From Escherichia coli (GTDB lineage Bacteria > Pseudomonadota > Gammaproteobacteria > Enterobacterales > Enterobacteriaceae), in assembly GCF_003991155.1 (NCBI RefSeq), contig NZ_CP031293.1: a stretch of DNA of 64,000 nucleotides; one strand, 5' to 3'. Of this stretch, positions 63,219-63,855 are shown in pieces. Every line of letters begins with the position of its first letter. The first letter of the stretch is position 1. Under the pieces are notes generated by a model that searched no databases, was not told the origin of the DNA, and worked only from the letters and a program-made list of their open reading frames with translations. The position numbers were made by a program, and so were the translations under genes.

Positions 63219-63248
63219 AAATGGCGCTTTAAGAAGCGCCATTTTTTT
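63219..63248. terminator. Bidirectional rho-independent terminator between fdnI and the higA-like gene
   Basis: aaatggcgc tttaagaa gcgccattt stem-loop followed by a T-run. Confidence 0.65.
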
Positions 63249-63531
63249 ATTGCGTAACCAGACGGCGCAGTCGCGACACATCCACCGTTTTTTCAGCCTC
63301 TGCCAGGCTCCAGGCGTTTTGCAGATTCAGCCACATTTGCGGCGAACTGCCGATCACCACGGAAAGTTTAATTGCCATTTCTGGCGTCAAAGCTGCTTTT
63401 CCGGTCAGCAATCGGCTTGCCGTTGAGGGCGCAATTTCCATAGCTCTGGCAAACTCGCGCAGGCTGACATTAAGTTCGTCCAGTGATTCCTGAATAATGT
63501 CCCCCGGGCGGGGATGATTGGCCATTTTCAT
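63247..63531 (-). CDS. yddM: HigA-like antitoxin (HTH_XRE DNA-binding protein; yddM-type)
   Basis: Start at [14 protein letters not shown]... (94 aa); [26 protein letters not shown]; ATG overlaps the upstream toxin stop (TGATG). Confidence 0.8.
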
Positions 63532-63809
63532 CAGTGATAGTCCTCGTAATCCAGTATGTATGCATCGCCATTGACGAACTCGAACGTTATCCGCCAGTTG
63601 CCCGAGACAGATATCGCCCAAATTCCATCGCGATCGCCGCTTAACGGGTGTAATCGGTAACCGGGCATATCGATATCTGCAAGACAGCTTGCTGCATCAA
63701 TCACAGCGAGTCGGTGGCGTAATCGTTTGACTTGCGTCGGTATAACGCCGGAGGTTTTGCCGAGAAGAAACAAGTCACGCAATCCCTTGTGTCTGAAATT
63801 CATTATCAT
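63531..63809 (-). CDS. HigB-like toxin (RelE/ParE superfamily mRNA interferase)
   Basis: 92 aa: [22 protein letters not shown]...[39 protein letters not shown], closely resembling plasmid Rts1 HigB; toxin-first gene order. Confidence 0.8.
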
Positions 63810-63820
63810 CTCTTCATCCT

Positions 63821-63855
63821 TGTTCCCTCAAAAGGAACACTATCACTATTGTTCC
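63821..63855. promoter_or_regulatory. Overlapping palindromes upstream of the higB-like gene (candidate HigA operator)
   Basis: TGTTCC-N7-GGAACA (63821-63839) and GGAACA-N10-TGTTCC (63834-63855), immediately 5' of the toxin start. Confidence 0.45.

Follow-up and report, generated by a model that had tools for sequence, protein, structure and literature searches.

What is the pair of short genes that lies between fdnI and adhP in Escherichia coli, and why does the second of them, yddM, stand alone in K-12 as a small regulator behind a promoter rich in dyads? We addressed this question in a 64-kb stretch of the E. coli chromosome (the window), to whose positions all coordinates refer unless a strain's own locus positions are given; the 851 bases around the locus are 100% identical to E. 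coli strain 2016C-3878. In the interval between the ends of fdnI and adhP, the minus strand carries an open reading frame (ORF) of 92 amino acids (63809-63531) followed by one of 94 (63531-63247). Taken together, the comparisons described below lead us to read the locus as a chromosomal type II toxin-antitoxin operon of the HigB-HigA (Rts1) family, a reading to which we give a probability of about 0.9.

The pair is already known and annotated, and the structure of its antitoxin (PDB 2ICP) was solved years ago. In fact, RefSeq annotates both genes in every toxin-bearing genome that we inspected, the antitoxin as yddM, and TADB 3.0 lists the pair as higB/higA (TA027334). The suggestion of an earlier, sequence-only reading that the toxin gene is easily missed thus did not survive: the RefSeq pipeline PGAP names it wherever it is present, TADB has it as higB, and in K-12 it is physically absent. 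The locus has also been listed as TA20, ParE-2/HigA-2, on the strength of a match to the CDD ParE_toxin superfamily, with HS and K-12 encoding only the antitoxin (PMC7232551). YddM of K-12 was examined by chromatin immunoprecipitation with exonuclease treatment (ChIP-exo) as a candidate transcription factor of the Xre family (PMC6237786, Gao et al. 2018), and a Keio screen placed the delta-yddM strain, an uncomplemented mutant, among those hypersusceptible to epetraborole.

What we add is an operator model in which two tandem 19-bp dyads lie on either side of a predicted extended -10 element, with a footprint that crosses genera; evidence for ancestral, vertical inheritance, an unusual history for modules that are in general held to be mobile; and figures for the series of toxin decay in E. 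coli. The analysis also corrects the ParE-2 label of the locus, accounts for the appearance of K-12 yddM as a solitary small regulator whose promoter is rich in dyads, and gives precise DNA targets for operator binding and reporter work.

A toxin-first gene pair

The first ORF (63531..63809, minus strand) is WP_000605676.1, named in RefSeq a 'type II toxin-antitoxin system RelE/ParE family toxin', and we read it as a higB-type toxin gene. The second (63247..63531, minus strand; MKMANH...) is WP_000781370.1, an XRE-type helix-turn-helix repressor that corresponds to the HigA antitoxin, or YddM. The two are joined at TGATG (63529..63533, minus strand), where, as read directly from the sequence, the toxin TGA and the antitoxin ATG have the A at 63531 in common. 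This one-base overlap, which would allow translational coupling of the antitoxin to the toxin, also appears in the gene coordinates of the Citrobacter orthologues and in Rts1-type higBA. Likewise, the toxin lies 5' of the antitoxin on the same strand, the reversed gene order of the Rts1 type, so that in order and overlap alike the pair resembles HigB-HigA of plasmid Rts1 (Proteus vulgaris; PDB 4MCT/4MCX, 4YPB, 6CHV, 9CHL). On these points the sequence-only reading was sound: it had described a chromosomal HigB/HigA-like pair, toxin first, overlapping at TGATG, with yddM as the antitoxin and a probable operator upstream, and every test that we ran agrees with it.

A 124-residue version of the second ORF, beginning at a TTG at 63621, is an artefact of listing ORFs from the first possible start. 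We rejected it because the 94-residue form matches both PDB 2ICP and the RefSeq annotation exactly.

The toxin resembles the HigB ribonuclease

The only significant Pfam family for the toxin is PF05015, HigB-like_toxin (E 1.5e-17), which covers residues 4-92, that is 89 of its 92 positions. Among PDB entries, the five best sequences are all P. vulgaris (Rts1) HigB, aligned over the full length without gaps at E 8e-32 to 9e-30, the best being 4MCT_B. The sequence-only reading had called the resemblance to Rts1 HigB close; membership of the family stands, and the closeness is better given as a figure. When compared with the Rts1-type proteins, which we took together with their promoter from an IncT plasmid record, the toxin is identical at 52 of 92 positions (56.5%) with no gap, and the antitoxin is 36% identical to Rts1 HigA.

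This identity extends to the residues that matter for catalysis. In vivo, the P. vulgaris protein (PvHigB), which has the same length of 92 residues, requires His54, Asp90, Tyr91 and His92; its Arg73 makes contact with the scissile phosphate, and Asn71, which has been linked to selection of the third A-site nucleotide, gives the nucleotide pocket its shape (PMC5027501). All six (H54, N71, R73, D90, Y91 and H92) stand at matching positions in the gapless alignment, and all six are also kept in the orthologues of three Citrobacter species. These matches place the predicted toxin in the HigB-like branch of the RelE/ParE fold. By homology to PvHigB, and on that ground only, it would cleave A-rich codons in the ribosomal A site in a ribosome-dependent manner.

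Could the toxin instead be a ParE-type poison of DNA gyrase, unusually paired with a HigA antitoxin? The published label ParE-2/HigA-2, derived from the CDD superfamily match (PMC7232551), would suggest so; RelE and ParE share a fold, and the name given by PGAP is no more specific than 'RelE/ParE family toxin'. However, no ParE family is found among the matches, where HigB-like stands as the sole significant Pfam family, and the solved relatives are all HigB or GraT ribonucleases. The residues used by HigB for RNA cleavage, His54 and the C-terminal D-Y-H triad, are intact, and TADB re-labels the locus higB/higA. A gyrase poison is thus highly improbable, and we retain the HigB assignment. As for a function in phage defence, a PADLOC search returned nothing for the toxin and only weak generic helix-turn-helix matches for the antitoxin, and therefore gives no evidence of a catalogued role of that kind.

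The antitoxin is a HigA-family repressor

The antitoxin is 100% identical to PDB 2ICP/2ICT, the 'antitoxin HigA' of E. coli CFT073, and to YddM of E. coli K-12 (b1477). Its score against the NCBIfam equivalog TIGR02607 (antidote_HigA), for which the cut-off is 47.7, is 93.7 bits. It also carries a Pfam HTH_3 domain, and these results together identify it, from its sequence, as a HigA-family XRE helix-turn-helix protein. Rts1 HigA (PvHigA) likewise has an N-terminal XRE helix-turn-helix, and an alignment shows the same recognition-helix residues, T37, S39 and R40, in both proteins; in PvHigA, R40 is the residue that reads bases on the DNA (PMC6987408). Unlike Rts1 HigA, the window's antitoxin has no 10-residue C-terminal tail.

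Other HigB-HigA systems stand farther off. YgjN-YgjM of E. coli K-12 bears the same family name but belongs to a different subfamily; it too has the toxin-first order, with a ribosome-dependent toxin of the RelE fold, and it is not among the PDB matches of either protein. It occupies a different locus, fadH-rlmG (PMC7232551), and its HigA, YgjM, has the helix-turn-helix at the C-terminus, whereas in PvHigA (PMC6987408), as in YddM, it is N-terminal. The HigB-like/HigA family also has more remote members in GraT-GraA of Pseudomonas putida (PDB 6F8S) and HigBA of P. aeruginosa (6JPI), which were detected at E 3.8e-7 with the toxin and at E 1.8e-11 and 2.5e-8 with the antitoxin and are much lower in identity to the window's proteins. 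Their repressors, GraA and P. aeruginosa HigA, likewise bind promoter palindromes, in an arrangement where two dimers encircle one compound palindrome (PMC6987408). The operators that we describe below are, in contrast, two separated dyads.

Two predicted tandem operators around a putative extended -10

Read 5'-3' towards the toxin, the promoter is TGTTGC-gctgcac-GGAACA-atagtgatag-TGTTCC-ttttgag-GGAACA-aggatgaagag-ATG. The proximal operator, O2 (63821..63839, minus strand), is a perfect dyad, TGTTCC-N7-GGAACA, which ends 11 nt before the toxin ATG. The distal operator, O1 (63850..63868, minus strand), lies 29 bp away and is an imperfect dyad, TGTTGC-N7-GGAACA, with one mismatch to the O2 pattern; on the plus strand it reads TGTTCC GTGCAGC GCAACA, so that its outer half-site, the fourth of the promoter, is the GCAACA at 63863-63868. 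When the whole 64-kb window is searched for TGTTCC-N7-GGAACA with at most one mismatch, two matches are found (0.10 expected), both in this promoter, and none of 100 shuffles gives two.

Between the dyads lies a motif, TG-n-TA-n-TG-T, that is invariant across E. coli and three Citrobacter species. It resembles an extended -10 element, with TTGCGY 18 bp upstream as a weak -35. In the window, the predicted -35 is TTGCGC (63866-63861, minus strand) and the predicted extended -10 is TGaTAGTGT (63837..63845, minus strand), made of a TG at 63845-63844 and the hexamer TAGTGT at 63842-63837. The promoter assignment and the exact transcription start come from consensus; on this basis O1 would lie over the -35, and O2 over the 3' end of the -10 and the predicted start, which falls at around 63828-63832.

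Is this arrangement selected, or a chance feature of one promoter? We aligned seven sequences. Four are E. coli alleles, two from toxin-bearing lineages and two with an orphan yddM (the K-12 type among them), and the others come from C. rodentium, C. farmeri and C. werkmanii. No change is seen in the columns TGTTGCG, GGAAC, A-TG-TA-TG-TCC and GA-GGAAC. The half-sites of O2 are kept in all seven, three alleles each having one single-base variant. The N7 spacers vary in sequence, and they and everything farther upstream cannot be aligned, yet N7 keeps its length throughout, and the distance from O1 to O2 is 28-29 bp (a gap of 9 nt in C. farmeri and of 10 nt in the others). Because synonymous sites are saturated between the genera (synonymous divergence, dS, above 1), this conservation is a genuine phylogenetic footprint. 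Two conserved dyads thus bracket a conserved extended -10 motif, and such conservation is strong comparative evidence for the predicted operator function.

A different layout had been proposed in the sequence-only reading, in which palindromes overlap and share the central GGAACA, so that one dimer would bind either the N7 palindrome (63821-63839) or a GGAACA-N10-TGTTCC palindrome (63834-63855). Both palindromes exist exactly as described, and the 9-nt arms GGAACACTA/TATTGTTCC are 89% complementary. However, the N10 pattern is not significant alone (12 of 100 shuffles hold at least one match), and it leaves out the invariant GCAACA that completes a second N7 dyad, one extending 13 bases beyond 63855, where that reading had ended the locus. 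In addition, N7 is fixed everywhere, whereas the gap between the dyads is a base shorter in C. farmeri. The Rts1-type promoter, Phig, is built on this two-dyad plan as well, with 19-bp dyads set at a distance of 30 bp, the second of which ends 12 nt before the higB ATG. There, O1 and O2 overlap the -35 and the -10 and each is independently bound by a HigA dimer (PMC12266136). We therefore consider the overlapping layout improbable. The operator is better read as two tandem 19-bp dyads (TGTTSC-N7-GGAACA), of which the N10 palindrome would be only the junction.

The resemblance to Rts1 is one of plan and not of sequence, since the half-sites, TGTTSC/GGAACA in the window and TATTRCAC/RTGTAATA in Rts1, are unrelated; cross-regulation between the two systems is therefore unlikely. 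We also tried to transfer the published contacts of Rts1 HigA (C-30, G-24, G-8, C-2): one register fits the Rts1-type sequence, and none carries over to the E. coli half-sites.

A simple consensus scan for promoters produced a single match, TTGAGG-18-GATAAT (63831-63802, minus strand), which lies across O2 and the first toxin codons. This is the chance level (one found, 0.8 expected), and we rejected the match, which would start transcription inside the toxin ORF and yield a transcript lacking the toxin start. GATAAT is fixed in the 5' end of the toxin because it encodes Met-Ile-Met.

An old resident of the chromosome

How long has the module been in place? Identity of the toxin to its orthologues is 97% in E. 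marmotae, 87% in C. farmeri, 85% in C. amalonaticus, 83% in C. rodentium and 78% in C. werkmanii, and so falls in step with phylogeny. The pair sits beside fdnHI in C. rodentium, C. farmeri and C. werkmanii, as it does in the window, and this synteny argues that it is ancestral. Sequence comparison thus points to an old, vertically inherited chromosomal resident common to Escherichia and Citrobacter, unlike the plasmid-borne Rts1 pair.

A recent plasmid origin was considered and rejected. In PLSDB, no plasmid copy of the toxin exceeds 60% identity other than in chromosome-size records, all true plasmid matches falling below that value; toxins of 40-50% identity occur on about 100 Escherichia plasmids.

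The surroundings in Citrobacter have features of their own. A 200-residue gene of the pyrophosphatase family (PF00719) lies between yddM and fdnI, and adhP is absent upstream of the toxin; the immediate upstream neighbour in C. rodentium is maeA, and C. farmeri and C. werkmanii have a 571-residue double ABC-ATPase gene upstream. Owing to a 4-residue deletion in the helical region, the toxin of C. werkmanii has 88 residues.

Repeated loss of the toxin in E. coli

Within E. coli the two genes have had different fates. Among 5426 complete genomes, yddM is found in 5408 (99.7%) and toxin DNA in 1328-1330 (24.5%). In K-12 MG1655, yddM and adhP stand only 145 bp apart, and this gap holds no toxin-like frame. 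The toxin and its ribosome-binding site are deleted and the antitoxin is an orphan, although both operators remain, at -69 and -40 from the yddM ATG. (A putative remnant of the toxin end upstream of K-12 yddM, matching at 9 of 14 bases, is too weak to rely on.) In O157:H7 TR01 (locus positions 740-830), a separate deletion or recombination has fused O1 to the last 47 nt of the toxin. This junction is chimeric, with a flank of the toxin-bearing type, an O1 of the K-12 type, and O2 and the 5' part of the toxin missing; it occurs in only one or two genomes. In JA0265, described as a spontaneous mutant (locus positions 401-670), a 9-bp in-frame deletion removes Q26-V27-K28 from the toxin, and the allele is annotated as an intact protein of 89 residues. 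In strain AVS0282 (locus positions 681-958), a 1-bp deletion at toxin codon 33 changes CACCGACTC to CACCACTC, an annotated frameshift that truncates the toxin after about 35 residues and leaves yddM intact. Since these deletions and the frameshift are distinct, the toxin has been lost several times independently, and yddM is intact in every state of loss inspected. Overall, we estimate that about 13-14% of E. coli genomes have an intact pair, about 10% a frameshifted toxin and about 75% an orphan antitoxin.

Several of our observations weigh against the HigB-HigA reading. The toxin is dispensable: about 75% of complete E. coli genomes lack it, and a 278-bp copy, shorter by 1 bp, was found in 25 of 60 evenly sampled toxin-bearing genomes (about 40%), including O25b:H4-ST131. 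Being absent from most genomes and often frameshifted, it may be weakly active or selected against. Two basic residues of PvHigB, K57 and R48, are replaced in this toxin by S and M, at positions where alanine mutants of PvHigB are not defective (PMC5027501). An NCBIfam search yielded no model that names the toxin, and for this reason PGAP has no more than the generic RelE/ParE name for it. The proposed promoter was not called by the simple consensus scan, and the operator half-sites differ so completely from those of Rts1 that the spacing of the Arg40 contacts cannot be mapped and the binding geometry is a prediction only. Finally, a 2024 review counts such pairs among those that remain to be characterised (PMC11205521), and our literature search yielded no toxicity, cleavage or DNA-binding experiment on this one.

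One alternative is that the toxin ORF is intact but functionally decayed, the locus being in effect an autoregulated yddM alone, as in K-12. The independent losses (the K-12-type deletion, the ST131-type frameshift at codon 33, and the TR01 and JA0265 deletions), the gap between 99.7% and 24.5% in the frequencies of the two genes, and the literature, in which our search found no toxicity experiment, would all suit it. Yet of the changes that separate the intact toxin alleles of two E. coli lineages, 8 are synonymous and 1 is nonsynonymous, and the ratio of nonsynonymous to synonymous divergence (dN/dS) is about 0.03-0.07 for both genes, out to Citrobacter. This is strong sequence evidence of purifying selection on the toxin, a constraint as strong as that on the antitoxin, and it agrees with the full set of catalytic residues kept in E. 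coli and three Citrobacter species. A decayed toxin in the window is therefore unlikely, and we favour an operon in which both products would be functional.

What the module may do, and what YddM may do alone

We envision the following operation. A single minus-strand transcript would start from a weak sigma-70 promoter (-35 TTGCGC, 18 bp, extended -10 TGaTAGTGT) and end at a hairpin common to fdnI, encoding the 92-residue HigB first and then, coupled via TGATG, the 94-residue HigA (YddM). HigB would enter the ribosomal A site and cut the mRNA there. In this reaction His54 would serve as the base and Arg73 would stabilise the transition state, and Tyr91, Asp90 and His92 would act on the leaving group. 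HigA, predicted to be a fully folded XRE helix-turn-helix dimer, would bind and neutralise HigB, and, alone or with HigB, would bind the two tandem 19-bp operators over the -35 and the -10/+1, thus repressing its own operon. In E. coli the toxin has been lost repeatedly, with the antitoxin and both operators retained. We infer the toxicity, the ribosome-dependent cleavage with its codon preference, the neutralisation and the operator binding by analogy with the characterised relatives. For growth arrest by the toxin and its relief by the antitoxin, the strong purifying selection on the toxin, the persistence of an intact yddM in each state of toxin loss inspected and the unequal frequencies of the two genes offer indirect support.

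Why should yddM persist where the toxin is gone? Between the toxin-bearing and the orphan (K-12) alleles, yddM shows 9 synonymous differences and no nonsynonymous one (P about 3e-6 under neutrality). Because of this, the 99.7% presence despite toxin loss and the retained operators, we suggest, tentatively, that YddM might have a role of its own that is independent of the toxin; we hold this possible but rather doubtful. One candidate for such a role is immunity ('anti-addiction') against related HigB toxins brought by plasmids or phages, and another is repression of further genes. If YddM does have such a role, the locus would offer a natural series in which a toxin-antitoxin module is domesticated into a regulator.

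Lineages of E. coli differ in yddM by a synonymous divergence of 0.09-0.14, computed over only about 68 synonymous sites. For a core gene of this species such a value seems high; it could reflect old allelic lineages or recombination at the locus.

Translation signals, terminators and flanks

Two ribosome-binding sites are predicted from the sequence. An AGGA (63817..63820, minus strand) lies 7 nt 5' of the toxin ATG at 63809, and its AGG is kept in the alignment of toxin-bearing E. coli and Citrobacter alleles. A GAGGA (63541..63545, minus strand) within the last toxin codons, 9 nt 5' of the antitoxin ATG, would serve higA.

Downstream, where fdnI (plus strand) and yddM (minus strand) converge, folding predicts a hairpin terminator on both strands (63217..63246). 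On the plus strand its energy is -17.6 kcal/mol (z -3.3), and T7 comes next; for the minus strand the values are -16.2 kcal/mol and z -4.2, with U4 after the hairpin. It probably ends both the fdnGHI and the toxin-antitoxin transcripts, although a consensus terminator scan reported nothing at the locus. Upstream, the adhP stop (63995-63997, minus strand) is followed by a terminator-like hairpin, ctgcgac...gtcgcag (63959-63984), with a T-run, which separates the operon from adhP. Directly after this hairpin, K-12-type alleles carry sequence unrelated to that of the window.

The gap between fdnI and yddM, 50 bp in the window (63197-63246), varies in length among strains. In K-12-like genomes (locus positions 2085-2440) it holds two tandem units of about 180 bp, rich in palindromes that resemble repetitive extragenic palindromes (gccggatgcggcgtgaacgccttatccggc...), and other genomes apparently have a single such unit, their match spanning 565 rather than 743 bp. 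In some genomes, a transposase gene of the IS200 family is inserted in this gap.

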